A stretch of DNA of 61,240 bases, the filler included. It is 9 parts of 9 records of this genome, joined end to end, with 100 filler letters (N's around TTAATTAATTAA, not from the genome) between each part and the next. Parts side by side here need not be neighbours in the genome. Positions count along the whole stretch, not along the records: positions 54,324 to 61,240 come from SRR31156797_96206; 8 more parts are not named here. One strand, 5' to 3'. Shown piece after piece: positions 4,580-61,240 of the stretch (positions are counted from its first letter, which is position 1; the number at the start of each line of letters is the position of its first letter). Below the pieces are notes generated by a model, which saw only the letters and a list, made by a program, of their open reading frames with translations, ran no database searches and was not told where the DNA came from. The position numbers were made by a program, and so were the translations under genes.

Positions 4580-4669
4580 GGATGGGTGGCCGAGTGGCTG
4601 AAGGCGCTCCCCTGCTAAGGGAGTATACGGGGAACCGTATCGTGGGTTCGAATCCCACCCCATCCGCCA
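4580..4669 (+). tRNA. tRNA-Ser (anticodon GCT)
   Basis: Acceptor stem GGATGGG/CCCATCC, discriminator G, encoded CCA; anticodon stem CTCCC/GGGAG with loop CTGCTAA; long variable arm; T-loop GGTTCGAATCC. Confidence 0.97.
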
Positions 4670-11944: not shown

Positions 11945-12044
11945 NNNNNNNNNNNNNNNNNNNNNNNNNNNNNNNNNNNNNNNNNNNNTTAATTAATTAA
12001 NNNNNNNNNNNNNNNNNNNNNNNNNNNNNNNNNNNNNNNNNNNN
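11945..12044. other. Artificial contig spacer
   Basis: 44 N + TTAATTAATTAA (stops in all six frames) + 44 N. Confidence 0.99.
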
Positions 12045-28389: not shown

Positions 28390-31300
28390 GAACGATTCTG
28401 AATTCCGGAAGCGGGATCATTGATCTCAATGGCGTAGGAACAGTGACCCTCGGCCTGCTGGTTACAACCAGTTCAAGCACCACCTCTGGATCGGAAGCCG
28501 TAAATATTCTTTCTACCAGTGCGGGAGTTGTCGACGGCGGTGACACTGGCGGTGAGGACATTCAGGCCTCTGGCCGCCTCGTAATAGACGCGGCCGCGGG
28601 TATCGGCTCTGCTGATTCTCTGGAAACCGTCGTTGGATCGATGGATCTGGACAACTCCGCCGGCGGGAACATTGATGTATCCGAAACCGATGCTGTGACC
28701 GTAGTTCGTTCAGTTATCGCCGCAGGAGCCGGCGACCTTTCCATAATAACAATTGACGGCAGTCTCACGACAACCGGCCCCGTCTCAACAACTGGGGCAG
28801 GAACGATTACCCTGACCGCCGGTGATTCCGGCAGCTCGAACACCGACAATCTGGATATCCGCGGAACGATAGATGCGGATACGGGAAAAATAACTCTGAC
28901 CTCGGAGAACAATGACGTGGTTTTCAATGCAGCCGGGGATGTTACGACAACAAGCGGCGAGATTGAAATCAACGCCGGCGCTGCGGGTACCGGTCGGATA
29001 ACAATGGCGGATGGCTCCGTTCTGGATGCCGGTGATGACCTCATCGATTTAAACGGTTCCGGGGATATTACCCTGGGCCGGCTGATCACGACCAACGCCG
29101 GCCTGACAGCCGTAGAGGTCCTGGCACCGTCCGGCGGGATAATCGACGCCGGTGATACCGGCGGGGAAGATGTCGAAGCGGTTTCCGGCCGCCTGGTTAT
29201 TGATGCTTCCGATGGTATCGGCTCCGCAGGAGCCCTGGAAATCGAGGTCTCTTCCATCGATTTGGACAATACAACGACCGGGAATCTTCTGATAGAAGAA
29301 ACCGACGATCTGGAAATCATCAACTGCGTGATTGCAGCGGGCGGCGGTATTCTTAACATCGCCACAGACGACGGTGACATGACCGTAAACGGTATCGTCT
29401 CCACCACAGATGCAGGAACTCTGACCCTGACCGCCGGAGACTCGGGAGGATCCAATGATAATGATCTCTCTATCAATGCTCCCGTTACAGCGGTGAATGG
29501 AAAACTCACCCTCACCTCGGAAACCAACGATGTTCTCTTCTCGGCTGCGGGCGATATCACGACCACCAGCGGCGAGATTGAAGTGAGCGCCGGGATTGGC
29601 GGCGCGGGTGTTATAACCTTATCCGACGGGACAATCCTTGACGCCGGTGACGATATCATTGACCTCAATGCTCCAGGGAATATTACCCTGGGCCAGCTCA
29701 TCACAACCAGTACGGAAACCACAGCGGGTTCCGAGGCTGTTAACATCAACACCACAGGCGGCGCTCTTATCGACGGCGGCGATACCAATGGTGAGGATAT
29801 TCAGGCCGGGGGCAGGCTGATCGTAGACGCGGCCACGGGAATCGGTTCTGCCGACAGTCTTGAAACGGCAGTTGATTCGGCGGACTTCGACCTGAGTACA
29901 AGCGGCAATATTGATATCGACGACACAGGAAGCCTCACCGTGGTCCAGGCGATCATTGCCGCAGGTGACGGGAACCTTACGCTGGAAACAACCGGCGGGA
30001 TTGCCTCGACCGGAGAAATCTCCACGACCGGGGCGGGAAATATTATACTCAACGTTTCCGCGGGGACAATTTCGACAGCAGGCGAGGTTCTGGTATCCGG
30101 AGACGGAGCCATCTCCATTACGACCGCCGGCGGCGTCGGAGATGATATCTCCGCCTCGGAAAAAGTTGAAGCCGCCGGAGCAGGATCCATAACGATTAAC
30201 GCCGGTGCCGGGGATATTTCTATTACCGATCAAATCAACTCAGGTTCCGGGGCCACGGCAACCATGAGCCTGACCGGTGCCACAATCTCCCTGGGTGCTC
30301 CGGATTCCGACGGCACCGATCTCCTCTCTCAGGATGGCGCTATCTCCCTGAACGGAAATCTCGAACTTATGGAAGATGTTCTTATCGACTCCACCGGTGC
30401 CGGGGCCGGGACAGGGGCAGACCTTACCGTTACCGGGACCACAGACTCCGATACTGCTGACGAATGGACCCTGACCATCACCACAGCAACAGATGCCACC
30501 GATGATGGCACCGATTCGGGAGACGTGGATTTCCAGGACATTATCGGCGGAACAACTCCGATCCTCTCCCTCACAATCACCGCTGATTTTGTCACTTTGA
30601 ACGGAATCGGTTCCGGAGGAAGCTACGGTATTCTCGGGAATACAGCGGCCTACGGTGTGGCTGGTGAGAACACGGCCGTCACGGTTTATGCAAACGATCT
30701 GATTGAACTCACCTCTACCACAGGCGGGGACTACCATACGACCTTGAAACAGTTCTATCACAGCTACAGCGATTCGGTCCGTCTTGCTTCGATCAATTCG
30801 GATATTGATCTGGGAACCGTGGGGGGAGTCAGCCCTCAGGTTCTCTTCAATAAACTCTACATCGATTTCGATCCCGCGTGGAGGATTACAACCCTTTCGG
30901 ATATAGGCGCCAACGGCCGGATTGTCTTCTACCGCGGGACTCTGGAATTGGGTTCGACTTATGCTCTCTACTCCGATGCGGATAACGACGGCTCCGGGGA
31001 CGGGGATATCGTTATCTACGGTGCGAACTACGATGCGAATGACACGGACCTCGATAATACCGACGCCGGAAATACGGCTTTTGTCTATCAGACGACAACG
31101 GTAATTCCGAAGGCGGATCTTGCCGGTTACGGTGCCGTTTTCGAGGCCAACGATGATTCCATTCTTGCCATCGGTAAACCCAACGGGGACGTTTCCTCTT
31201 CAGGAACGGGGAACCTCTATGTGAACGGGACCGATCTCACGGGACTGGGTGACTGGAAGCTCTACGTGAAGAGCGCAGATACGACCGCCGTTGCGGGCTA

Positions 31301-34281
31301 CACCGAAACCGGGACCTATGACGACTCCTATACCTGGGGTTCCGTCTACAATATGGTTTTCAACTCCACGGTCTCCAACTGCGGTACAGTCGTCGGCGGG
31401 AATATTGCTGCGGCCTCCACCATTGCTGCCGGCGGAAGCGTCGGAGAGGATGATAACCACCGGGTCATTGACGGAAGCGGGAATGATACCTACGATCCTG
31501 CCGATGCAGATGCGGCCGCAGGAAGGGGCTGGGACTTCACAAGGCCTTATATAACTTCCTTTGAGACGGTCTTCGACAATGTGATCCGGGTGACATTCAA
31601 CGAACCAATCGAGAATGATAATAACCAGATCTCCAATGCGGTTGCCGATTTTATCACCAATTCCATGGGGGCCGGCGGTTCGGTCGGTTTTACCCAGACC
31701 TGGGTGGACGATGATGCCACACCCGATGCGCCTCCCTATAACTTCACTCTCACCGATGGCGAGGGCGATCTCTCGACCTTCTACCTCTATGTTCCCCGAT
31801 CGACCCTGACCTGGAATACAGATGCCACTGGAACAACGATCGGTGCCGAGACCGGCATAGCCGACCATGAAGATACAGTCAATGCGGGTTCCACCGACAG
31901 GGAAGGGGATCATCAGGAAACGATCCCCGACCTCTCTTTCCTCAAGGGAATCCTGACCGATGCCGGCGGGCATAATATGATCCGCAATTACAATCGGAAC
32001 AATGCTCCGATCTGTGACGGATCCGCCGATGAAACCTTTACCGACAACTGCCGGCCCGTTCTTATTGATGTTGCTGCAGGCCGGGCGGATCACGAGGATG
32101 CAGCTTCCGATGAACCCTACGACGCCCACAACTTCCTCCATCTGCGCTATTCGGAGCCGGTGAATATCGGGACTGAGGCTGACTACCAGGCCCGGGCCGC
32201 CTCCCGGATCGAAAACGGCAGGGCCGATGAAAGCTTTGATGCAGCCGGAGAGCACGGGGGCCATATTGTCCAGGACGGCAGTGATGTTGCTGTGACAGGA
32301 TTTTTCACTTATCCGGGAGATTTCCTCTCCGGCGTCATTGATTCCGACGGTAACCCGGCCATCTCCTCGATCTACCGGGGTGGTAATGAGAACCCCTCGG
32401 GAGACTTCGGTCTGACCCTCTATCTGGCCGGCTGGCGGGCGGATGCCGACTCTTATTGGCCCGGTTATCTGGGCGATCCGACCCAGACGATCGACGATCA
32501 CACCCCCAACACCGATGTGTCCGCCGGCGGAATTGATGTCACCGTTATCTCAAATGATCTGATCACCGACGAGTCGGGGAATGGGCAGGAGCCCTCAGAT
32601 GAACCCTACCGGACATTCGATCCCGAGGCTATAACCGATCAGGATCCAGAGATCAAAGGATATGTCGACGATATTGCACCGGGTGTCGCCGGTTCCGGAG
32701 CCATCTCCATGCCCTCCACCCACCTGGATGAATGGGATGTGGAGCATCCCTATTTCTCCGAATACACCGAAGGTGAAGCCGATCTCTTCGAGGTTCTCTT
32801 AAGAGACGGTAATGCCGACGGTTTCGTCGATACCCTGGATATTCATTTCCAGGACAACTACTCTTCCAACCGATCGGTCCAGGTGACAGGTGGAACCTGG
32901 GATTCTGCCACCGATCACACCCAGGAGATAAACGATCCTACGGCTCCCTTCCATCCCCGCGGTATGCGGGATGCCAGTGTCTCCCGGACCCTGGACAGCG
33001 CCGTGACTCCGATCACCATGGAGGATGTGGATGTTGAACCATCGGCCAATATCCCTTCGCCGGTCTTCAACACAGAGGTTCTCCAGAATCTCTTCAACAC
33101 CAGTCTCCTCACCGATAGTGTCTCCGATCCGGATGACCCCTATTTTGCCATCGGTTTTGATCAGGATACGATGGACTGGGACCTGACAGTCTCGGTCTAC
33201 CTCGAATACAATGCGGAGGTCGGGTTTTTTACCGATTTGGCAGGAAACCTGATGCCCTCGACTGTCGGTCAGCTGCTGGCTGTTGAACGGATTCCTCCGC
33301 GGTTCCAGCTCACCCTTATCGGTGTGGGTTCGGATCAGCTCTACGTGCGGTTCACCGAATCTGTCTATCCATCGGATGGTGTTTCTATAACGCCAGGACA
33401 TTTTGTGATCACCGATCAGAACGGTGATGATAATGGTCTGTATATGGTTGATAGTATTGAACCCATAACAGAAACGAGTGATGGGACTGGATTCCGGGAT
33501 GCCTATTTGACACTCGATAATGAGATAGATGAGAACTTTGCGGTTTTCGGAACGATCCGCCCGGCCGGAGGGTTCGGGACGAATGATACAGGAATTAAAG
33601 ATAAGGTGGACAACTACATCTCTATCGATGAGAGCCATCCCATCACCGATGTGGGCCTCGGAGTTCTTGAACCTGTTTTTGCCGACGACGGGATCAACAC
33701 CGACGCCGCCCAGGGCGGGATCAGTCCTTCCCTGAAGGTTTTTGACGGCTCCGGAAGGCTGCTGGATGAAGATATTACAGTTGAGGCCTCCATCCTCGCT
33801 GACGAGGCTGAAGATCTGCCGGCTACCCTCTACTATGATGTAGATGTTCCGGACTCTATGCTCTTTTTCGGATCCGATATCCGGGAGACGGATTTCTGGA
33901 TGCCCCAGACGATCTCCGGTCTGGAGATTCTGGCCAATACGACTGCCCGAAGTGTAACGCCCTTCCGCAGCGATTCCGGTACCCGGGATTTTCTGATACC
34001 AGAGGGGGATGATGAAATGGAGTCGGGAAATAAGATTGAATTTATTATGACCCTGGGTGATCTCGTTTGTGCCCGCTGGGAGGATGAGAGTACTCCTCTG
34101 GCGGTCGCCCCCTGGTCCTTTAATATCGATGAGATTGTCGCCCAGTCCGCCGGAGTGACGATCTTGAACAATGTGATAAACCCCGAGGAAGATCAGGCCG
34201 CCTCCCTTCTCTACGAGCTGGAAGAGGCGGGGATGGTCACGATCAATGTCTTCAACCTGGCCGGAGACAAGATAAAGACCC
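28390..34281 (+). CDS. Giant acidic surface protein (beta-helical repeats, Ig-like domains, FlgD-Ig-like C-terminal domain), truncated at both ends; spirochaete-like
   Basis: Frame open across the whole contig; three ~205-aa repeats starting near 28443, 29067 and 29682; Ig-like motifs (VTFNEPI, LRYSEPV, VRFTESV); terminal GVTILNNVINP..AGMVTINVFNLAGD. Confidence 0.8.
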
Positions 34282-34381
34282 NNNNNNNNNNNNNNNNNNN
34301 NNNNNNNNNNNNNNNNNNNNNNNNNTTAATTAATTAANNNNNNNNNNNNNNNNNNNNNNNNNNNNNNNNNNNNNNNNNNNN
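34282..34381. other. Artificial contig spacer
   Basis: N44-TTAATTAATTAA-N44. Confidence 0.99.
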
Positions 34382-48086: not shown

Positions 48087-48186
48087 NNNNNNNNNNNNNN
48101 NNNNNNNNNNNNNNNNNNNNNNNNNNNNNNTTAATTAATTAANNNNNNNNNNNNNNNNNNNNNNNNNNNNNNNNNNNNNNNNNNNN
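48087..48186. other. Artificial contig spacer
   Basis: N44-TTAATTAATTAA-N44. Confidence 0.99.
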
Positions 48187-51100
48187 TGGCTGGTGGTACT
48201 GCAAAACAGTTGTCGGAAGTCATGGTGCCACTTACGTCCGATGGACAAGAAACAGTAGGATTATAAGTTCCCTGTACCTGAACATAAACCGTACAAGTGG
48301 TATCGTTACCCGAATTATCGGCGATGGTCCAGATTACCTCAGTGGTTCCTACCGGGTAAAGCGTATCGGCATTGGTGGTTCCCGATGTATAGTTATTGGT
48401 AATGGTATAAGTTGCCGTAGGACAATTCTCATTGATTGTTGGAGCAGCTACAGGAACAAAAGCTTCACAGGCACCACCTGAAATGGTAACCGGAGCAGGA
48501 TCACTTGGACAGGTGATAACAGTATAAGGAATATCGGCCCTAAGAATAGTAACGGTAAAATCACAGTTGGCCGAATTTCCGTCGGGGTCAGTAACGGTAT
48601 AAATAACGGTTGAAATACCCACACCAAATTCCAATCCATTTACATAACCATCGTCAGCGGTATCGGTTGCTCCGGTAATTACATAAGACAAGGTTAACGA
48701 ATCTTTTGGCCAACAATTATCGGAATAATCCACCGAATCAATCACCGTAGGAATTACTGTACAAACATCTGCACCAAAGGTTTCGCTAACATCCTCACAG
48801 CCTGTTATGGTAAGATCTGGAGGAACTGTATCTACAATGGTTACAGTAAATGAACATTCGGCAGTGAGCCCTGCATTATCGGTTGCTACGTATGTAACGG
48901 TAGTAACCCCAACCGGGAAAGCAACATTTGCTACCGTACCTGATCCTCCTATACTGTCTAATGCTCCGGTTGAAGACCAACTTAGAGTTGGAACTGAACA
49001 GTCGTCGGAATAGCTTGGATTAGTAGGAGCATCCGGTATTTTAGAGCATAAGTTTGCAGCCGCAGTCTCCAGCACATTATCCGGACAAGTGATTGTAGGC
49101 GGAACATCATCCACAATGGTAAATGTTGCCGTAGTTGTATCCGAATTTCCACATCCATCGGTTACGGTAAAGGTAACTGTTCTTTGATTATTACCCGGAA
49201 CACCTGTCCAAGAGGTTAATGCAGTATCTGCAGTCCATACCAGGTTCGGATCGCACAGATCATTTGCTCTGGCACCGGCATGGTTAGCCAGCCAGGCCAG
49301 GTACAAGGGCTCCTGATCCGGATCGGTGGAGGAACACTGAATGGTTGAATCCTGTGCTTCCGGATTAATTTGAGGCAGCGTATTATCGATTATTGTAATG
49401 GTTTGAATCTGTGTATTTTCTCCACCACAATCATCAAACACAGTCCAGTAACGGTAAATGGTATCTACACAAGCACCTGTAACTAATGAATCGGCGAAGG
49501 TAGCATCCAGTCCAACAGCACAATTGTCATCCTCGTCGGTTACATCGCCGGTTATTGCAATTGATGCATCATAGGTACAATCGGCATTTTTATAGATGGT
49601 AAAATCGGCTGGTACAGTAAATGTGGGTGGGAAATCATTATCAGCTACAGCAATGGTCTGTACCTGTGTTAGTTCGTTACCACAATCATCCACCAGGGTC
49701 CAGTAACGAAAGATAGTATCAGCACATAAACCTGTAACAACAATATCGGTATAAGTGGCCCCCTGACTAAGCGAGCAATTATCATCTTCATCAGTAACAT
49801 CACCTGTTACAGCAATAGATGCATCATAAAGGCAATTTGCATCTTTCGAAATGGTTGTATCGTTTGGCACCGTAAAGGTGGGATCAGTCATGTCAATCTT
49901 TCTGATAAATGCAGGGGAAACACTACAATCGTTCACCGTACCAATTGGTATACTGTCGCATAATTCTGCGGTTATATGGCGCGTCATAATGGAATAACCG
50001 GCACAGTTATCTGCTGTTGGCGGGATATTGGCACCCCAGGTCGTTCCACCGTCAAAACTGTATTCAATATCAAATCCGGGCACTGCTGGCGGAGGTGTTA
50101 CTGTAATTGGTCCACAACCTGTATCTACATCAGGTATGAGCGCAGCCGGGTAAACCATAAAGCTGGCAGAACCAAAGCAAGCACCAGAAACAGTGGTGTA
50201 AGTAGCTTCGAAACAACCTGCAGAGTCAGCGGTAAATAAACCGTTATTATCGATCGTTCCTCCTCCGCTTACCGACCACGATCCGGCATATCCGGTTGAT
50301 TGATGGAAAGTTGCCGTATCGCCCACACAGGTATTAGAGGTAAATACTTCAGGATTATCGTATACGGTTACCAGGTATTCCGTTGCAGAACCCGGACAAC
50401 CGGCCACATAAACCGTTAAGGTATATTCAGTGGTAGTTGGAGGTACCACAACAACTGTTTGTCCCGAACCACCGGGTATTTCATAAACCGGTCCCCATTC
50501 GTATTCAATGTCCGGTGTAGGTGTGGGAATAGAAACGTTATCCACAGCCCAAACACTACAATCATCAGGGCTATCAAATTCAAATCGAATACGCAGGTTT
50601 GTCATTCCCAGATAGGGCGATAAATCAATACCAATATCGTTTACAACATTTGGCATTGGACCTGTTAAAGTGCCAAAATATTCAGCCAATAAAATGTTGT
50701 AAGTAGCCCCACCATCGGTTGATAGTTTTATTTGGGCGGTAGCAGTTGACGTTAGTATATGCGCATGATCGAACGAAAGTTCAGCGTCGGGCATTCCAAC
50801 CAGGTTAAAGATTGGGGTTTCCATCCAGGAATTAACACCACCACTTACCAACGCAAATTTCTTTTCACCTTCAAACTCAAGACCACCGCAGAATGTTTTT
50901 GGCCCATTGGTCTCTGCCCAGGGCCCAATTTTTTCATTGTCATTGGAAGCCGGGAAGGGCGAAATTTCCACTCCATCTTCATAAACCTTCCAACCTTTGG
51001 GGTTAGCCACATTAAAATGCCCGTCCTGAATTATTCCTACCGTATCGGGTAAAATAAAGGCATTGGCAGTAAGTGTTATGGGTTCTCCTGAACATATATC

Positions 51101-54100
51101 ACCACCAACTGCTGTAATCTCAGGTGTAAACGATGGGATAACGGTAATTCGGGCCGTATCGGAATAAACTTCCCCACATGTTGCATTACCAATCACAGCT
51201 CTGAACTGAGTAAATTGAGGGAGATTGGTATAGGTGTAGGTATCGGTTGTAACAGCATGCTGGGTCCATGTAAAACCGGCATCGATCGACGATTCCCAGC
51301 GTATTACGTTTCCGGTATAACTTTGCAGGGTTAAAGTTCCGTTGTTAATTTCAGTACACACTTTAAAAGCAGCAGGCGAAATCACACCACCATAGGGCAT
51401 TAGTTCAACAGTTATTTCGGCGGTATCTGAAACATTCAGGCATGCACCTGTTGTTGTTACAATAAAATTAAAGGTACCTGCTTCAGTTGGCGTTCCTGAA
51501 ATGGTATAAACACTGTCATTTGTTTGCGTAAGGCTAACTCCACCGGGTAATGTACCAAGCGAAACAATGGCGCTGGTTGCCGATCCTCCAATGGTATAAC
51601 TAAGCGGGCTTATTGCCGACCCTATACACAAGGTTTGATTTTCAGAACCACTTGACAAAACAATCGCAGCATCCTCTGTAACTTCTATCTCTCCTGATAA
51701 AGAAGGATTCACACAAGGAGAACCGGTGCTTGTAATGGTATATGAATACACACCGGCAACTGTAGGCGTTCCGCTAATCGTAAATAATCCATTGGCAAAA
51801 GATTGGCTAACACCAGGTGGTAAAGTACCCGAAGAAAGTACTGCACCAGTTGCATTGCCCCCAATGGAATAAGTAATTGTTGGTAAAGGGTTATTTATGC
51901 AAATACCTACCGTATCAGATCCTCCGGCAAGGCTGATTGTTCCTTCATCCTCAACAGTAATGTTTCCAATAGTTGAAGGATTATTACAAAGGCTTCCCGT
52001 AGTTGTAACAGTAAAATCGAATGTTCCTGTTTCAGTTGGGATGCCTGAAATGGTAAAAATGCCTCCACTATAAGCGGTATCTACCCCAGCTGGCAGAGTT
52101 CCGGTTAAAACAGCTCCGCTTGCCGATCCTCCAATGGTATAGGCTATATTGGTTATTGCCGAATCGACACAAACAGTTTGTACCGAATCGCCCGACAAGC
52201 TAATTGTTCCGTCACTGCTTATGGTAAGGGTTGCAGCTGTTGATATTGTTGAATCGCAGGTAAATCCTCCCTGCCCGGTTATTACAACATCATAATCTCC
52301 GGCATCGCCTGCTGTAATACCGGTAATGGAATAATCCGACGATGTGGCTCCGGAAATTTCAATTCCGTCCTTCCTCCACTGATAGTCCAGAGGAACGCCA
52401 TTTGCTGTGGCAATAACATTGAATATCACGTTCTCACCTTCACACTCAGATTGTGATACGGGATGTGTTGAAATGCTTATGGCGGCATCAACATTTAAGG
52501 TAACTGTATTTGAAGTTACCGCTGCACAAGGCGAAGCACCATTTATTTCAACATAATAACTTGCATCATCGCTAAGGCTTACCGAACTAAAGTGCAAGCT
52601 ATCTGAGGTTTCACCTGCTATTGGCGCACCATCTTTATACCACTGATAAGTTAATTGACTGCCACTGGCGACAACACCTAAACTTGCCGAATTTCCAACA
52701 CAAACACCTGTATTAACAGGTTGCGTTGTAATCACTACTGCTCTGTGTATGGTTAGTATTGCGGTATCATTTATTGCTCCGCATGGCCCCGCTGGATCAT
52801 CAGACGTAAGTATTAAAGTTACTTCTCCGGCAGCAATTTCAGCACTTGTTGGATCATAGCTGGCATTTAAGGAATTAGGGTCAGGGCTAAAGGTACCTGC
52901 ACCGCCAGACCACGTACCTGAACTTACTCCACCACTAATACTACCAACTAATGCAGCAACATCTCCTTCGCAAATGGTATCGTTTGAACCTGCATCTACT
53001 GTTACAAGCGGATTAATGGTTATTTCCACATCAGCAAAAACGGCATCGCATGGTCCTGCAGGATCGTCGGTAGTAAGCGTTAATGTTACCGTTCCGGCCG
53101 CAATATCGGCTGCACCAAGCGAATAGGTGGCAGCCAATAATGAGGCATCATCAAAGCTTCCATCTCCGCTGGTAGTCCAGGTTACAGAACTTGCACTTCC
53201 CCCAATCGAACCGTTTAAGGTAAGCGTACCATCAGCGCAAATTGTTTGTGGTGTTCCGGCATCTACTGTAGGTGCCTGATCAACAACGATGGTTCGTGTA
53301 ACACTTACTGCCGCACATGTGCCTGGTGCATCTGTGGTAAGTGTTAATGTTACAGTTCCACTAAAATCTGCATCTGGTGTATAGTTAACTGTTTCAGGAG
53401 TGGCCGTTTGGGCCGTAGAACTTAAGGTTCCTCCGCCGGTAGTTATGGACCAGGCTCCGCTTGATGCACCACCACCAATGCTTGCTCCGGTTAAAGTAAC
53501 CGGTAAAGGACTTCCTGATTGACACACCGTATCAGGTCCACCAGCATTCGCTATAGGTGCCTGTTCAATAACAATTATTCTGATATCACTAACTGCAGGG
53601 CACGTTCCCGATGCATCTGTAGTTAATGTTAAAGTATCTGCTCCAAAATCATTGGCCTGAGGAGTATAAGTGACCGTTCCGGGTGTTGCGGTTTGTGCGG
53701 AAGAACTTAATGATCCGTTACCTGATGTTATTGACCATGCAGCCGTACTTGCTCCACCACCAACAGTAGCTCCGGATAATACAATTGCTGAAGGACTTCC
53801 TGATTGACAAACGGTATCGGACTCACCTGCTTCCACCGTTGCTACCGGATTAATTGTTATTACCACATCATCACTAACTGCATCGCAAGGTCCTGCCGGA
53901 TCATCGCTTGTAAGTGTCAATGTTACTGTTCCCGATGCTATATCTGTTGCACCTGGTGTATAAGTAGCAGCCAATAAAGTGGCATTATCAAACGAACCGT
54001 CACCGCCACTCCAGGTTCCTGTTGTTACAGCTCCACTTACCGAACCGGCCAGCGTAACTGAACCATCCGCGCAAATGGTTTGTGGCAATCCCGCGTCCAC

Positions 54101-54223
54101 TGTTACAACAGGATTCACTACAATGGTTCGGGTATCACTGGTTGGAGTACAGTCTCCAAGGGCATTGCTTGTTAATGTTAAGGTAACTGTACCACTAAAA
54201 TCTGCAACAGGTGTATAAGTTAC
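48187..54223 (-). CDS. Giant multi-domain surface protein (Ig/PKD-like repeats, jelly-roll domain, HYR repeats), truncated at both ends; Bacteroidota-type
   Basis: Frame open across the contig; repeats VDAG..QTIC..TVTLTLT.DDPAGPC; Ig YQWYKDG/YQWRKDG; HYR PPTITCP..FPVGVTTVTY.ATD..G. Confidence 0.85.
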
Positions 54224-54323: not shown

Positions 54324-54456
54324 TTTTCATCATATTGTATCAAATTCAAGTGAGTAAGGCAGGCGAGCCAGCAAACACAAACCCATGGGATTCGCTCCGG
54401 ACATGAAACGTGCCGACACACGCTTTTGCGCGTCCCCTGAACAAAAAGAAGACGGT

Positions 54457-54804
54457 ATGATGGAAAACCACCAAAAAGCAAAACTTGAAGCGAACATCAA
54501 GACAAAAATAGACGAAATGAAAGCAACCGTCTCGTCCTATGAACAGCTTACAAAACCCGTTGCCCCGGATAATGCCATTGGCCGGCTCACCCGCATGGAA
54601 GCCATCAACAGCAAGAGCATGAATGAAGCCGCTTTGAAGAGGGCCAAATTTACATTGTCAAAACTGGAACGCGCATTGGCCAAGATTGATACTCCGGATT
54701 TCGGGCTGTGCAGGGAATGCGAAGAGCCCATTCCATTTGCAAGATTGATGATCCTGCCGGAAACCAGCCTGTGCGTCAGGTGTGCTGAGGAGCTGAGCGG
54801 CTAA
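54457..54804 (+). CDS. TraR/DksA C4-type zinc-finger protein
   Basis: Coiled coil, then FGLCRECEEPIPFARL..PETSLCVRC. Confidence 0.9.
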   Translation: MMENHQKAKLEANIKTKIDEMKATVSSYEQLTKPVAPDNAIGRLTRMEAINSKSMNEAALKRAKFTLSKLERALAKIDTPDFGLCRECEEPIPFARLMILPETSLCVRCAEELSG

Positions 54805-54846
54805 ACAAGAATCCGACCCAAAACAAATCAGACCGGAGCCCAAAGA

Positions 54847-55611
54847 ATGAACGACGTCCTGTGCAAGCGATTACCTGCCCTGTTTTTGCTCGGTTTACTC
54901 ACCCTTTGGGGATGTGCCCCCACGATACATACATCAGAATTAAATCGTTCCGCCCCAGCCGGCAAAAACATCCATTCCACCCAACGACCGGCAGTCCCCG
55001 GCCCCGCCATGATCTACGTCACCGACTTCCATCTCGATCCGGATCAGATCCTGCAAGACCGGCCTGTTCTTCGACGCAATGGCCTGATCGCCAACCGACT
55101 GAAACGCCTTCGCCGTGGAGACGACCCGGCCACCAAAGCCGCCAAGTTGATTCGGCTCCTGTCAGAAACCATCACAAGGGAACTCAACCAGGCAGGCCAG
55201 CCGGCCACGTATTGCCCGAACAGCTCCGGTATAAGGAATGAGGTTTTTCAGGCCGATACCCCCCTCCCCAAAGAGGGATGGGTCGTAGGAGGCTGGTTTC
55301 AGGCGGTAGACGAAGGGAACCGGCTGGCCGAGGCAACCATCGGTTTTGGCACCGGGGCAAAAACGGTCAGGATTCAGGTGGTCGTGTCAGATCTGGCAAA
55401 GAATGTAAGCGAGCCGTTTTTAGTCATTGGGACCGGCAATGGGGCCCAAATGATGCCCGGAGGACTGGTAACCAAAAATCCTTATGCCATTGCCGCCAAA
55501 TACGTAATGTCCAGGGGCGCGACAGAAAAAGAGGTTAAGAAACAAGCCGCCTCCATCGCCAAAAGCCTGATGGCGTATATCAGCTCGGGCCCCGGTGATT
55601 CTCAATCCTGA
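54847..55611 (+). CDS. Lipoprotein, DUF4410-like
   Basis: Lipobox LWGC; IYVTDF; VDEGNRL..IGFGTG. Confidence 0.65.
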   Translation: MNDVLCKRLPALFLLGLLTLWGCAPTIHTSELNRSAPAGKNIHSTQRPAVPGPAMIYVTDFHLDPDQILQDRPVLRRNGLIANRLKRLRRGDDPATKAAKLIRLLSETITRELNQAGQPATYCPNSSGIRNEVFQADTPLPKEGWVVGGWFQAVDEGNRLAEATIGFGTGAKTVRIQVVVSDLAKNVSEPFLVIGTGNGAQMMPGGLVTKNPYAIAAKYVMSRGATEKEVKKQAASIAKSLMAYISSGPGDSQS

Positions 55612-57794: not shown

Positions 57795-58541
57795 ATGATC
57801 GAAATAATCAAAGCGAAAAAGCGTCACTTTCAGGATTTTGGATGGTTGCAAACCCATTGGCTGTTTTCATTCTCGAGCTACTTCGACCCCCACAATATTC
57901 AATTCGGCGCTTTGCGGGTTTTTAATGATGATGTTGTCCAGCCCGGTACGGGGTTCCCGACCCATCCCCATGAGGAAATGGAGATCATCACCATCGTACT
58001 CAAGGGAGAAATGACCCATGAGGACAGCATGGAAAACAAAACGGTAATACAGGCGGATGACGTTCAAAGGATGAGTGCCGGTACAGGCTTGACACACTCG
58101 GAATTCAATCTTGGGGAAAGCCCGGTCCACTTCTATCAGATATGGCTGTTCCCTGATAAGCCGTCGCTCAAACCAACATATGATCAAAGGACCTATTCGC
58201 CATCCCAGTGGAAAAACCGGCTTTTTCCGGTAGCGTCAGGTCAAGGCATACCCGACACCGTCACCTTCCACACGAATGCCACCATTTATCGCTGTGATCT
58301 TGACAAAGAGCACTCAATTGTCTTTGATACCACAACAGGACGCAGGATATTCGTGTACCTTACGACGGGTGAAATGCTGGTTGGGGGACAAAAAATGCAT
58401 CAAAACGATCAGGCAAGGATTGATACGGACACCCCCTTGACCTTTAAGGCATCCCAAGACACAGCGTTTCTGCTCATTGACGTACCCTCCTGCAAGGGAT
58501 GGGGCTATAGCCGGGAGACACTTGATGGCGGGAAAAGATAG
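57795..58541 (+). CDS. Pirin family protein
   Basis: AAGGAGG RBS; FSFSSYFDP, FGALRVFNDD, GFPTHPHEEMEI, HEDSM, MSAGTGLTHSE, YQIW. Confidence 0.95.
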   Translation: MIEIIKAKKRHFQDFGWLQTHWLFSFSSYFDPHNIQFGALRVFNDDVVQPGTGFPTHPHEEMEIITIVLKGEMTHEDSMENKTVIQADDVQRMSAGTGLTHSEFNLGESPVHFYQIWLFPDKPSLKPTYDQRTYSPSQWKNRLFPVASGQGIPDTVTFHTNATIYRCDLDKEHSIVFDTTTGRRIFVYLTTGEMLVGGQKMHQNDQARIDTDTPLTFKASQDTAFLLIDVPSCKGWGYSRETLDGGKR

Positions 58542-59187
58542 CATAGAGAAAATGTACAATACGGTCGCAATGGAATATTCGGAAACATTTTCCGATGAGC
58601 ACGAAAAAAAACCAAAAGATCAGGAGATGCTCCGCAGATTTGCGATAAAAATCGCGAATAAAGCGCCGGTCTGGGATTTTGGCTGCGGCCCCGGCCAGAC
58701 GGCAAAATACCTGCAAGACCTTGGCATTGAAATCTCCGGAATGGATCTGTCCGAACAGATGATCAAACAGGCAAAAGCGGCCCATCCTGAAATACACTTC
58801 AGAATAGGAGATATGCTTGAGCTCCAGTTTGACAACGACTCTGTTGGCGGCATTGTCGCGTTCTATGGGATTGTCCACTTTACAAAGGAGCAAGTGGCAA
58901 CAGCCTTCCGTGAAGCATTTCGGGTGTTACAGCCCGATGGATTATTCCTTTTCACATACCATATTGGCGAGGAAACCATCTCCCTGAAAGAATTCCTCGG
59001 GAAGAAAATCGATATCGATTTCATGTTCTTTAATACGAATTTCATTCATGGTTGTCTAAAAAAAATTGGCTTTAAAGAAATAGAAATCATCGAAAGAGAG
59101 CCATACCCTGGTGTGGAGTACGAAAGCCGAAGGGCTTATGTATTTGCAAAAAAAGAGGGTTGCAATAACATAGTAAGAAGTTATTAA
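58525..59187 (+). CDS. Class I SAM-dependent methyltransferase
   Basis: VWDFGCGPG, GMDLSEQM, GDM, FYGIVH, RVLQPDG. Confidence 0.92.
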   Translation: MAGKDSIEKMYNTVAMEYSETFSDEHEKKPKDQEMLRRFAIKIANKAPVWDFGCGPGQTAKYLQDLGIEISGMDLSEQMIKQAKAAHPEIHFRIGDMLELQFDNDSVGGIVAFYGIVHFTKEQVATAFREAFRVLQPDGLFLFTYHIGEETISLKEFLGKKIDIDFMFFNTNFIHGCLKKIGFKEIEIIEREPYPGVEYESRRAYVFAKKEGCNNIVRSY

Positions 59188-59201
59188 AAGAGGATTTATT
59201 C

Positions 59202-61163
59202 GTGAGCACAATCCATTCCGGTCAACTGTCCGCCCAGGAACCGGAGCGCATTGTCAAAACACTGGGCAAAGCCCCCCACCGTGTCCTGTTGTTTGGCGAA
59301 ATGGGCATTGGCAAGTCAACCCTTACCACGGCGCTTGCCAGGGTCATGGAAAAGACGGGACAATCCTGCGTTTGCCTGGGTGCGGACCCCGGCTCCCCCG
59401 CCTTTGGAGTACCGGGTGCTGTTTGCCTCGGCAGGTGGCAGGAAAACAGATGGCAGCTTGTTGAAATGGAAGCGCTCTGCAGCCTGAATGCAGGCAGGTT
59501 CCGTCTTCCACTGGTATGGGCGGTGAAGCGCCTTGTCAGGGAATCAGACAAGGAAATACTGGTGGTGGATGCGCCAGGGGTCGTCAGGGGCGTCGCAGGG
59601 GCGGAACTGCTGCTGGGGCTGGTTGAAGCCGCTTCCATCCGAACCATCCTTGTGCTGTGCAAGGAAGGAAAAGACGTTCCCTATGCCGGTGAACTCATGT
59701 CCACCCAGGCCGAGATCCACCGGGTACTGCCCTCTCCCCTGGCCCGCCATCCGGGAAAGGGCAAACGAACGCGTCAGCGGACACGCCTGTGGAATGCCTA
59801 TCTCCAGGATTCAAAAGAGATGAACGTTGACCTTTCCCGGGTCAGTTTACTAGGAACCCCTCCTCCCCTGGCAGCGGTAAAGGAGTGGCAGGGCAGGCAA
59901 GTGGCCCTCCTGGACGGAGGCACAACACTTGCCATGGGCGAGGTGGTCAAGATCGAGAACACCACCCTTTGCATCCGAACCCCGGGCAAGGAGCAACCGT
60001 TCAACCAGGTGGTGGTCAGGGATGCATGCCGCAGTAAAGACGGAGCGCTGAAAACGGCTAAGCATGCGGCATCATATGCCGGCAGCCATTCCGTCACCTT
60101 CCGGCGGAAAGGGTCCGGAACCGGGACAGGCCCCTGGGCCGAGGTCAGGATGGGGGAGCTCACCGCCACCCTGATGAACGGCGTGCTTGGCGATCCGCTG
60201 CTTCACCTGCGGTTGATGAACCGGAAACAAAGCATGTTGTTCGATATTGGAGACGGAGAAAGACTGCCGGCGCGCCTGGCCCATCAACTGACCGATGTGT
60301 TTATCACCCATGCCCATATGGACCATATCGGCGGATTCCTCTGGCTTATCCGGTCCCGGATCGGGGATTTGCCTCCCTGTAACATCTATGGACCACCCGG
60401 ACTGGCCGATCATATCGAGGGAATGATCGCCGGGGTGCATTGGGATCGAATCGGAGAATACGGGCCCCGGTTCCGTGTGGCGGAACACCATGGGGATTAC
60501 TTACAGATAACGGGTCTGCACGCGGGGCAAAAGGGAAGAAAAATGCTGGGCCGGGAGCAAGTAATTGACAATACCCTGCTTAAAACCCCGACATTCACCA
60601 TCCAGGCGATTATTCTCGACCACGGCACGCCGGTCCTGGCATACAGTTTTGAGAGGATGCCCCAGCTCAACATTATAAAGAAACGTCTCATGGATAGGGG
60701 AATCCCCCCGGGCCCATGGATTGGAGAACTCAAGCGCATCATTGCGGCAGGCCACCGGGATGCCCGGCTCCCCCTGCCCGATAACAGCCTGGCGTCCGCC
60801 GGTCCCCTGGCTGACGATCTGCTCCGTGTCAGTCCGGTTTATAAGCTGGTGTATGCGACAGACCTTGCCGACACCCCCGCCAACCGCACCCGGCTGATCC
60901 GGTTTGCCAGGAACGCCCATACCCTGTTCTGCGAAGCCGCCTTTACCCGGGAGCATGGGGAAAAGGCCGCAAGTTCCGGCCATCTGACGGCGCGGGCCTG
61001 CGGTGAAATCGCAACCGCAGCCAATGTCAACCAGGTGATACCGTTTCACTTTTCAAAACGATACGAATCCAGACCCTGGCTGATCTACGAGGAAGTAAAA
61101 TCTGCGTGTGCCAGGGTGGCGGTTCCCTCCCAAAACCTTACGGATGAGGGGCAGGTTCTCTGA
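59202..61163 (+). CDS. Fusion of a Clp1-like P-loop polynucleotide kinase (N-term) and an RNase Z-like metallo-beta-lactamase (C-term)
   Basis: Walker A GEMGIGKST, ADPGS..GVPG, VVDAPG, lid-like RTRQRTRLW; then NGVLGDP, FDIGD, THAHMDH, DHGTP, YATD, CEAAF, HLTA, PFHFSKRY. Confidence 0.85.
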   Translation: MSTIHSGQLSAQEPERIVKTLGKAPHRVLLFGEMGIGKSTLTTALARVMEKTGQSCVCLGADPGSPAFGVPGAVCLGRWQENRWQLVEMEALCSLNAGRFRLPLVWAVKRLVRESDKEILVVDAPGVVRGVAGAELLLGLVEAASIRTILVLCKEGKDVPYAGELMSTQAEIHRVLPSPLARHPGKGKRTRQRTRLWNAYLQDSKEMNVDLSRVSLLGTPPPLAAVKEWQGRQVALLDGGTTLAMGEVVKIENTTLCIRTPGKEQPFNQVVVRDACRSKDGALKTAKHAASYAGSHSVTFRRKGSGTGTGPWAEVRMGELTATLMNGVLGDPLLHLRLMNRKQSMLFDIGDGERLPARLAHQLTDVFITHAHMDHIGGFLWLIRSRIGDLPPCNIYGPPGLADHIEGMIAGVHWDRIGEYGPRFRVAEHHGDYLQITGLHAGQKGRKMLGREQVIDNTLLKTPTFTIQAIILDHGTPVLAYSFERMPQLNIIKKRLMDRGIPPGPWIGELKRIIAAGHRDARLPLPDNSLASAGPLADDLLRVSPVYKLVYATDLADTPANRTRLIRFARNAHTLFCEAAFTREHGEKAASSGHLTARACGEIATAANVNQVIPFHFSKRYESRPWLIYEEVKSACARVAVPSQNLTDEGQVL

Positions 61164-61240
61164 CCAAAGGCTCCTCCGTCCCCGGTTGTGAGTTGATCCG
61201 GCGTGGGATCGTGTTTAATACCTAAAGTTCGTCTAAAAAG

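Follow-up and report, generated by a model that had tools for sequence, protein, structure and literature searches.

A bacterial fusion of a Clp1-type kinase and an RNase Z-like metallo-beta-lactamase as a candidate RNA end-healing enzyme

In the DNA analyzed here, a stretch of 61,240 nucleotides (hereafter, the window), a single gene at positions 59202..61163 on the plus strand joins a Clp1-type polynucleotide kinase to an RNase Z-like metallo-beta-lactamase (MBL) in one uninterrupted open reading frame (ORF) of 653 amino acids. This kinase–RNase Z-like fusion is real and occurs in many bacteria. An earlier note, made from the letters of the DNA alone, had named misassembly as the way in which the fusion could prove to be illusory; because the same uninterrupted two-domain frame recurs across independent assemblies, in 10 genome loci as well as in metagenome loci, misassembly is excluded. 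Based on the sequence, the predicted structure, and analogy with characterized relatives, we give about an even chance to the reading that the fusion is an autonomous enzyme with two RNA-end-processing activities, which would heal RNA ends to 5'-phosphate (5'-P) and 3'-hydroxyl (3'-OH) independently of a ligase. The enzyme is widespread and uncharacterized; it would be of a known kind, that of bifunctional RNA end-healing or nuclease-kinase enzymes, in an architecture on which our literature search found no paper.

Why should such a fusion matter? To our knowledge, most known Clp1-family kinases come from eukaryotes and archaea, in which they invariably stand beside an RNA endonuclease. The fusion is a bacterial case of the eukaryotic pairing, with a Clp1-type kinase welded to an RNase Z-type nuclease, and the union has been retained through deep divergence. 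Toxins, ribozymes, and stress leave RNA with 5'-OH and 2',3'-cyclic-phosphate ends. If both halves are active, the fusion would add a new class to the RNA end-healing enzymes, its parts being apparently unrelated to those of T4 Pnkp, bacterial Pnkp, and HD-Pnk, and it would point to a ligase-free cleaning of such ends, a pathway that, as far as we know, is undescribed in bacteria; the cleaned ends would rescue tRNAs or feed fragments to the ordinary decay machinery. There is also a consequence for annotation. Fusion proteins are named “ribonuclease BN,” “ribonuclease Z,” “MBL fold metallo-hydrolase,” or “Clp1/GlmU family protein” in the databases, and the protein atlas agrees; the labels “ribonuclease Z” and “ribonuclease BN” are wrong, and “MBL fold metallo-hydrolase” is uninformative. 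Finally, a single soluble-looking chain with clear point mutants makes the hypothesis directly testable.

Two predicted catalytic halves in one chain

The gene starts with GTG and has zero internal stop codons. By direct reading, a Shine-Dalgarno-like GAGGA (59190..59194, plus strand) lies 7 nucleotides 5' of the GTG and begins 3 nucleotides beyond the stop, at 59187, of an upstream methyltransferase ORF. The translated product of the whole ORF (P0001; 59202..61163, plus strand) comprises, in order, a Clp1-type kinase, a Clp1 C-terminal-like domain, a linker, and an RNase Z-like MBL, and the full-length AlphaFold2 model of its 653 residues has a mean predicted local distance difference test (pLDDT) score of 87.1 and a predicted template modeling (pTM) score of 0.60.

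The Clp1-type P-loop polynucleotide kinase domain spans approximately residues 27-202 (59280..59807, plus strand), as delimited by Pfam and by model alignment. Pfam PF16575 (CLP1_P) matches residues 32-202 with 50.6 bits against a gathering score of 26.6 (E value, 2.7e-13), covering profile positions 1-187 of 188, and the next P-loop family in the same scan, MeaB, reaches 19.7 bits. The kinase is followed by a beta-rich domain equivalent to the C-terminal domain of Clp1 (approximately residues 205-285; 59814..60056, plus strand), and structural alignments to Clp1 and Grc3 reach model residues 279-282. In the full-length model, residues 8-278 superpose on residues 87-422 of human CLP1 with a Z score of 27.3 and a root mean square deviation (rmsd) of 2.7 Å over 263 aligned residues; the structural scores for Caenorhabditis elegans and yeast Clp1 and for Grc3 are close to that of human CLP1. 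When residues 1-300 were modeled alone (pLDDT 88.2; pTM 0.86) and aligned to all 48,161 PDB representative chains, the top six matches were all Clp1, Grc3, or NOL9 (Z 25.4-18.1; 223-274 residues aligned), and the seventh was the signal recognition particle GTPase Ffh, at Z 12.1 over 140 residues. When the PDB was searched by sequence profile with the N half, only short P-loop matches came up (RecA and ArsA, with Clp1 at 3.4e-5), and the families could not be told apart.

The motif definitions used for this half ([D/E]hhQ for Walker B, the clasp, and the lid) are those given in PMC6777427, and conservation was read from 57 aligned full-length close relatives and 55 divergent fusions. Walker A (G32-EMGIG-K38-S39, 59295..59318, plus strand; the motif GEMGIGKST occupies residues 32-40) keeps K38 in 57 of 57 close relatives and 47 of 55 divergent ones. 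The Walker B equivalent, D62-P-G-S65 (59385..59396, plus strand), aligns with the DPGQ/DIGQ of stand-alone CLP1_P proteins and corresponds to the DxGQ of Clp1 with Q changed to S; D62 is found in 57/57 close and 52/55 divergent relatives, and position 65 itself varies among the latter (S in 15, Q in 14, L in 8, R in 8, and T in 6; Ser here). VVDAPG stands at residues 121-126. The lid-like R189-T-R-Q-R193 (59766..59780, plus strand), again by direct reading, has the form RxxxR, one residue shorter than RxxxxR; R189 and R193 are invariant in an eight-sequence alignment with stand-alone CLP1_P proteins and are kept in 52 and 54, respectively, of the 55 divergent fusions.

By these sequence and model comparisons, the N half (approximately residues 8-281) consists of a kinase domain of the Clp1/Grc3/Nol9 type and the C-terminal domain of Clp1, without the eukaryotic N-terminal domain, and we class it as a divergent bacterial branch of PF16575, not as a Clp1 orthologue. 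With the stand-alone prokaryotic Clp1 proteins (Ts-Clp1 and Pyrococcus Clp1) and with eukaryotic Clp1/Grc3/Nol9, the fusion shares the CLP1_P family and the fold of the kinase and C-terminal domains (Z 25.4-27.3 to C. elegans and human Clp1), and the fusion and the stand-alone CLP1_P proteins have in common Walker A, the Asp of Walker B, and the two lid Arg residues. Like prokaryotic Clp1 as described in PMC6777427, the fusion has no N-terminal domain. Unlike Clp1, it has a nuclease half, a Walker B Ser for Gln, APGV in place of the clasp [T/S/L]xGW, and an RxxxR lid, and it forms a branch of its own. We infer that the N half would use ATP to phosphorylate polynucleotide 5'-OH ends, as a kinase of the prokaryotic Clp1 type. 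Thermus scotoductus Ts-Clp1, a stand-alone protein likewise devoid of the N-terminal domain, phosphorylates the 5'-OH of RNA in vitro (PMC6777427).

The C half, approximately residues 320-644 (60159..61133, plus strand), is an RNase Z/ELAC-like MBL domain according to its best NCBIfam model and to model alignment. That best model is NF002558 (PRK02126, a “ribonuclease Z” subfamily), which matches residues 320-644 over profile positions 5-340 of 345 with 262.5 bits (E value, 5e-78). Motif II, H370-A-H372-M-D374-H375 (HAHMDH at residues 370-375; 60309..60326, plus strand), is present in 55 of 55 divergent members, and the other MBL motifs are LDHG (H474), YATD (D554), CEAAF (E578), GHLTA (H594), and FHFS (H616). 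HMMER aligns residues 343-623 with human ELAC1 (E value, 6.9e-12), pairing HAHMDH with HLHGDH, CEAAF with HEATL, GHLT with GHST, and FHFSKRY with THFSQRY. An exosite or flexible-arm insert at approximately residues 486-545 (60657..60836, plus strand) bears a GP motif running from G500 to K511 (GIPPGPWIGELK, residues 500-511), which HMMER aligns with GVPPGPAYGKLK of human ELAC1; G504, W506, L510, and K511 of the arm are kept in all close relatives (57/57), and 4 of the 55 divergent ones have a gap in place of the arm. In structural comparison, model residues 320-642 superpose on residues 1-296 of Bacillus subtilis RNase Z, in the tRNA-bound chain that shows the arm, with a Z score of 26.4 and an rmsd of 2.4 Å; 279 residues align to this arm-bearing chain (2fk6_A/4gcw_A), versus 241 to the 269-residue chain 1y44_A.

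The fusion can be compared with the short RNase Z/ElaC enzymes (B. subtilis RNase Z, Escherichia coli ZiPD/RNase BN, human ELAC1, and rice TMS5), with which it shares HxHxDH, motifs III-V, the HEAT Glu, the HST His, and the GP arm. Unlike these enzymes, it is without the PxKxRN loop, scores 108.6 bits against the 292.95 of TIGR02651, and carries an extra N-terminal kinase of ~320 residues. By sequence, the C half is RNase Z-like, not RNase Z proper; its motifs and its model argue for a two-metal phosphodiesterase of the RNase Z/ELAC type that has kept the tRNA-elbow arm. Between the two halves lies a linker (approximately residues 286-319; 60057..60158, plus strand), which is the least conserved stretch among close relatives and has pLDDT values below 50 at residues 290-293 and 304-306.

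The earlier note had described a single intact 653-residue ORF, had listed the motifs GEMGIGKST, DPGS, VVDAPG, RxxxR, HAHMDH, DH, YATD, CEAAF, HLTA, and FHFS together with a GP-containing, exosite-like insert, and had read the two halves as a Clp1-like kinase and an RNase Z-like MBL with a full motif set. All of this stands: the ORF is intact, with the ribosome site GAGGA upstream, and every motif lies where it had been placed. The N half fits Clp1/Grc3/Nol9 (its top six structural matches) better than it fits any other P-loop family, MeaB with its 19.7 bits included, and whole RNase Z chains, with their arm, can be superposed on the C half. The further proposal of the note, that the protein heals the two ends of cleaved RNA and might in this way counter ribotoxins, is plausible.

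Distribution and evolution of the fusion

A word-indexed database search gave 1392 clusters at E <= 1e-3 among 8000 scored candidates. The uninterrupted two-domain frame, with both PF12706 and PF16575, is present in 119 of the 120 best clusters, the exception being a 446-residue protein that covers 68% of the query. When the N half alone was compared exhaustively with 1.84 billion representatives by HMMER, 449 clusters (50% identity) had E <= 1e-3, 74 of them E <= 1e-30; 54 of the best 150 matches have fusion length (589-697 residues), and only near E 1e-13 do ordinary stand-alone CLP1_P proteins come in. Among long divergent representatives, with N-half identity down to 27-32%, the MBL domain was found in 33 of the 33 scanned, and 28 of the 33 reach CLP1_P at E <= 1e-3.

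The 57 aligned close relatives show no change at any catalytic residue of either half (57/57), and nine MBL residues (H370, H372, D374, H375, H474, D554, E578, H594, and H616) are all intact in 53 of the 55 divergent fusions. A tree built from 55 fusion MBL halves together with 40 stand-alone ones has one branch that divides the two groups with a Shimodaira-Hasegawa-like approximate likelihood ratio test (SH-aLRT) value of 99; one stand-alone sequence (L020) sits on a very long branch. This dividing branch is consistent with a single fusion event, and the fusion is old and apparently arose once. Judging from the MBL half kept in 33/33 representatives at deep divergence and from the one separating branch, the fusion is maintained by selection.

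The distribution of the fusion is patchy. The class of one fusion genome (G002) gave strong N-half matches in 3 of 201 sampled genomes, and the order of another (G003) in 8 of 75, all in frames of 652-715 residues. The fusion is absent from all 50,697 phage records searched, and plasmids yielded C-half relatives only, with 0 of 33 records covering 80% of the query. No longer fused form scored in the search, which is weak evidence, and a search for shorter forms gave 91 matches, mainly fragments at contig ends. Does the fusion also exist as split genes? Two N-half-like proteins on long contigs, P0127 (331 residues) and P0142 (304 residues), were considered as such and rejected; they end in non-family tails, one of them Arg/Ala-rich, and look like frameshifted fusions. 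A search with P0127 in 201 genomes of the order of another genome (G007) found no match. In a Desulfobacteraceae metagenome-assembled genome (MAG), the fusion matches as two overlapping pieces in different frames near the 5' end (L003:1974-2820; pieces 1974-2096 and 2080-2820), which suggests a frameshift or an assembly error.

The G+C fraction of the fusion is 0.59 versus 0.51 for the whole window, and the gene lies 3-9 GC points above its flanks both in the window and in 9 of 9 loci (L001, L002, and L004-L010). Horizontal transfer was considered as the source of this excess and set aside; protein composition is probably the likelier cause than (recent) transfer.

The best family for the C half is that of the stand-alone NF002558 MBL proteins of Geobacter, Manganitrophus, Nitrosomonadales, Cupriavidus, and rhizobial plasmids. 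Relatives of this type, with 25-36% identity over approximately residues 320-635, occur in 56 genome loci and in plasmid records. Unlike the fusion, they are not accompanied by a kinase half, either within 10 kb (the N half is found in 10 of 75 loci, which are the ten fusion loci) or elsewhere in 5 of 5 genomes. Their commonest neighbor family occurs in 11 of 40 loci, in ten different positions and strands; 47 loci were listed for this count, and 7 without a called gene were dropped (L013, L014, L015, L045, L048, L063, and L064). We know of no experimental work on these stand-alone relatives. A full-text literature search found no paper on the kinase–MBL architecture; the paper likeliest to mention it, Burroughs and Aravind 2016 (Nucleic Acids Research, on RNA repair systems), lies outside the coverage of that search. 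In the Clp1 survey of 2019 (PMC6777427), the bacterial members number 14 and have a mean length of 333 residues, and neither its text nor one of its supplements mentions the fusion architecture, a lactamase, or RNase Z.

A proposed role in RNA end healing and the competing explanations

How might a ligase-independent end-healing enzyme of this architecture work? We propose that the arm would dock tRNA or tRNA-like RNA and that the acceptor end would enter the MBL site; by analogy with RNase Z, the arm suggests tRNA-shaped substrates. The MBL site would then create a 3'-OH by taking off either a 3' extension or a last nucleotide that bears a 2',3'-cyclic phosphate, and the kinase, tethered via the flexible linker of ~35 residues, would turn a nearby 5'-OH into a 5'-phosphate. 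MBL hydrolysis itself leaves 5'-phosphate and 3'-OH, and thus the kinase is unlikely to act on the nuclease's own product. Product ends with 5'-P and 3'-OH would suit CCA re-addition or those RNases that depend on 5'-P and on 3'-OH, not sealing by RtcB. There is precedent for the 3' step, in that the short RNase Z enzymes ELAC1 and rice TMS5 remove 2',3'-cyclic phosphate from cleaved tRNAs (10.1101/2021.08.05.455008, PMC11897441, and 10.64898/2026.10.07.757187).

In its logic, and in its logic only, the proposed end-healing enzyme resembles T4 Pnkp, bacterial Pnkp (with Hen1), and HD-Pnk, in which one chain combines a 5'-OH kinase with a 3'-end phosphoesterase. HD-Pnk follows the same bifunctional logic as the other two. 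Neither domain of the fusion appears homologous to those of the Pnkp-type enzymes, the kinases of which are of the T4 PNK type and the phosphatases of which are DxDxT, calcineurin-like, or HD; in Pfam and NCBIfam, the fusion matches no T4 PNK-type kinase and no DxDxT or calcineurin-like phosphatase family at E <= 0.01. Moreover, Pnkp-type enzymes work with a linked ligase, whereas the fusion has no ligase linked to it and is missing from the phage records. For T4 and bacterial Pnkp, the presence of a 5'-kinase and a 3'-end phosphoesterase in one chain is described in PMC3592404 and PMC1920235.

We can take the end-healing reading one step further and speculate that the fusion is a self-contained, ligase-free system for recycling bacterial tRNAs, in which the arm would measure the tRNA body, the MBL would clip a damaged or cyclic-phosphate 3' end for the CCA-adding enzyme, and the kinase would read or restore the 5' end of the same acceptor stem. 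We consider this more specific version possible but doubtful. If true, the enzyme would be a prokaryotic single-chain counterpart both of ELAC1/TMS5 repair and of the nuclease-kinase principle of Las1-Grc3 and TSEN-Clp1, and it would define a fourth, independently evolved class of kinase-phosphoesterase end-healing enzyme.

Several observations weigh against end healing. In the kinase half, the clasp Trp of eukaryotic Clp1 is absent: the clasp position reads A124-P-G126-V127 here and holds V, L, or I across the fusion family, which does not match [T/S/L]xGW. The three stand-alone bacterial CLP1_P proteins that we aligned are also without the clasp Trp and have [ST]xG[FL], the eukaryotic form being TxGW, and the literal clasp motif may not define the bacterial Clp1 branch. 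The kinase core (K, S/T, D, R, and R) is intact in 42 of 55 divergent fusions, and at least one residue is changed in 13 of 55, with K38R in 5; because of this, the kinase may be dispensable, or the N half may be regulatory, in some lineages. In the nuclease half, the 262.5 bits with NF002558 fall below its cutoff of 315, and the 108.6 bits with TIGR02651, the RNase Z equivalog, fall below 292.95. Motif I of RNase Z is a G-x-P-x-K-x-R-N loop, and the fusion has no K-x-R-N after G327, its sequence there being NGVLGDPLLHL(RL); the HMMER alignment to E. coli ZiPD starts only past the PxKxRN loop. Because the loop is missing and both scores lie below the NCBIfam cutoffs, recognition of the tRNA 3' end may differ from that of RNase Z. 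The full-length pTM of 0.60 leaves the relative placement of the two active sites in the model uncertain.

The genomic setting adds to the points on this side. We know of no process that would leave a tRNA acceptor stem with a 5'-OH on its 5' end. Among 414 flanking ORFs from 91 loci, which form 74 nonredundant locus groups at 90% identity, there is no conserved partner, the commonest neighbor family occurring in 3 of 74 groups. RtcB is present in 5 of 5 fusion genomes and is the only RNA ligase found there; PF09414, an ATP-dependent RNA ligase, occurs in 0 of 5. RtcB joins 3'-P or 2',3'>P to 5'-OH, and the predicted 5'-P/3'-OH products would not be its substrates because it needs unhealed ends. 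Since these products are not RtcB substrates and no other ligase was found, sealing is an unlikely end point; end healing for re-ligation is unsupported, and healing for CCA re-addition or decay fits better.

The unequal conservation of the two halves raises a further question: could the MBL half be the sole catalyst, engaged in an RNase Z/BN-like turnover of RNA, with the Clp1-like half serving as a noncatalytic ATP/RNA-binding recruiter or gate, as in yeast Clp1? The MBL residues are indeed intact in 53 of 55 divergent members versus 42 of 55 for the kinase core, and the stand-alone MBL relatives do without the N half, which occurs in 0 of 5 of their genomes. We nonetheless think this explanation unlikely: the kinase core is complete here and in 57/57 close relatives, and a pure binding module would hardly be expected to keep the catalytic Asp and the two lid Arg residues over deep divergence.

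Alternatively, the fusion might be a cut-then-phosphorylate machine, a single-chain analogue of Las1-Grc3 and TSEN-CLP1 in which the MBL endonuclease would cut RNA and the kinase would phosphorylate the downstream 5' end for 5'-to-3' decay or further processing. Grc3 cooperates with Las1 (PMC5900568). Like the fusion, Las1-Grc3/NOL9 and TSEN-CLP1 couple a Clp1-family kinase to an RNA endonuclease, a coupling that recurs; Grc3 and NOL9 are among the six best structural matches of the N half, which superposes on the Grc3 of Las1-Grc3 (Z 22.6-19.8) and on the human CLP1 of the TSEN complex (Z 27.3). The chemistry is what makes this reading quite unlikely in our view. Las1-Grc3 and TSEN-CLP1 are multisubunit complexes with HEPN or Sen-type nucleases that leave 5'-OH, whereas the fusion is a covalent one with an MBL, and MBL nucleases yield 5'-phosphate and 3'-OH, so the product of the cut would need no kinase.

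Might the substrate be DNA? A DNA end-cleaning enzyme, functionally analogous to mammalian PNKP, would combine a 5'-kinase with removal of blocked 3' ends at strand breaks. MBL-fold nucleases include DNA enzymes. Archaeal Clp1 and Ts-Clp1 can phosphorylate DNA 5'-OH at higher enzyme levels, although Ts-Clp1 prefers RNA (PMC6777427). We hold this explanation to be very unlikely given that the MBL half, with its tRNA arm, belongs to the RNase Z/ELAC type and not to the beta-CASP DNA type, that its best structural matches are RNase Z chains, and that no DNA repair gene is linked to the fusion in the 10 genome loci or the 74 locus groups.

Lastly, the host genomes bear on whether the fusion serves in tRNA maturation. 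The CCA end is genomically encoded in 4 of the 4 tRNA genes inspected, three in one fusion locus (L005) and one in the window, a tRNA-Ser(GCT) at 4580-4669 (plus strand). Encoded CCA removes the requirement for classical endonucleolytic 3' maturation by RNase Z, and such maturation is thus not needed where all 4 genes encode CCA. Since CCA is encoded and the fusion is found in only 3/201 and 8/75 genomes, the fusion, as far as gene content tells, is not a housekeeping RNase Z. That it is an ordinary tRNA 3'-maturation RNase Z carrying an extra domain is hardly credible, even though no canonical RNase Z exceeds the TIGR02651 cutoff in 5 fusion genomes (0/5) and nothing in 4 of these 5 matches the RNase_Z model better than the fusion does, because canonical RNase Z above the cutoff is equally missing from the sampled class (0/201 genomes, of which only 3 have the fusion), CCA is encoded, and the PxKxRN loop is absent. 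The same class-wide absence rules out the idea, also considered, that the fusion replaces a lost rnz. Two fusion genomes have a second ELAC-like ORF of 271-280 residues (G001:C539:2070-2807 and G002:C21:30748-31488), which matches the RNase Z model at positions 2-153 and ~198-301 and not over the arm region, that is, an armless form.

Genes around the fusion and elsewhere in the window

Pfam identifies the flanking genes in the window as a pirin, a class I S-adenosylmethionine (SAM) methyltransferase, and an LCM-type methyltransferase. The earlier note had named pirin and methyltransferases as the neighbors and had seen no ligase or toxin nearby; both statements hold for the window, and the survey of gene neighbors likewise found no toxin, ligase, or defense gene linked to the fusion in the 74 nonredundant locus groups. 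By Pfam, the 50 ORFs that flank the fusion in the 10 genome loci differ in all of them and show no common partner, and no PADLOC defense model matches the fusion. The gene for RtcA, an RNA 3'-phosphate cyclase, adjoins the fusion, divergently, in only one of the 10 loci (L008:4524-5762, minus strand, in a Methylococcaceae MAG) and is present in 1 of the 5 fusion genomes examined; a nitroreductase adjoins it in two (L003 and L006). Within the order of G003, RtcB is present in 6 of 8 fusion genomes versus 25 of 67 others (Fisher p 0.059, uncorrected for relatedness), and we do not claim an association.

The methyltransferase immediately upstream (58477-59187, plus strand), which ends 14 nucleotides before the start of the fusion, matches the PADLOC model mad2 (mads_2) with an E value of 2.7e-14 over the methyltransferase core; this match is probably generic methyltransferase similarity. 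Downstream, the window holds just 77 bases 3' of the fusion stop codon. They include a weak terminator-like hairpin (61194..61211, plus strand), 31 nucleotides past the stop codon, which comes from a consensus scan only; that scan gave 4 sites versus 5.7 expected in shuffled sequence, and the hairpin is thus without weight.

Elsewhere, window positions 11945-54323 contain sixteen runs of exactly 44 N, arranged as eight pairs 12 bases apart (starting at 11945, 17982, 23136, 28290, 34282, 39521, 48087, and 54224), which look masked or withheld; one pair overlaps the 3' end of a 1995-residue ORF. That ORF (48131-54118, minus strand) is one of two giant ORFs, the other having 1964 residues (28443-34337, plus strand). 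Between the N runs and the fusion, positions 54385-55611 (plus strand) encode a DksA/TraR-type zinc-finger protein of 139 residues and then a DUF4410 protein of 254 residues with a hydrophobic N-terminal stretch. The 1995-residue ORF consists of Thr/Gly/Ser/Asp-rich repeat modules, “TLTLT.DDPAGPCDAV” being an example, and resembles a surface adhesin.

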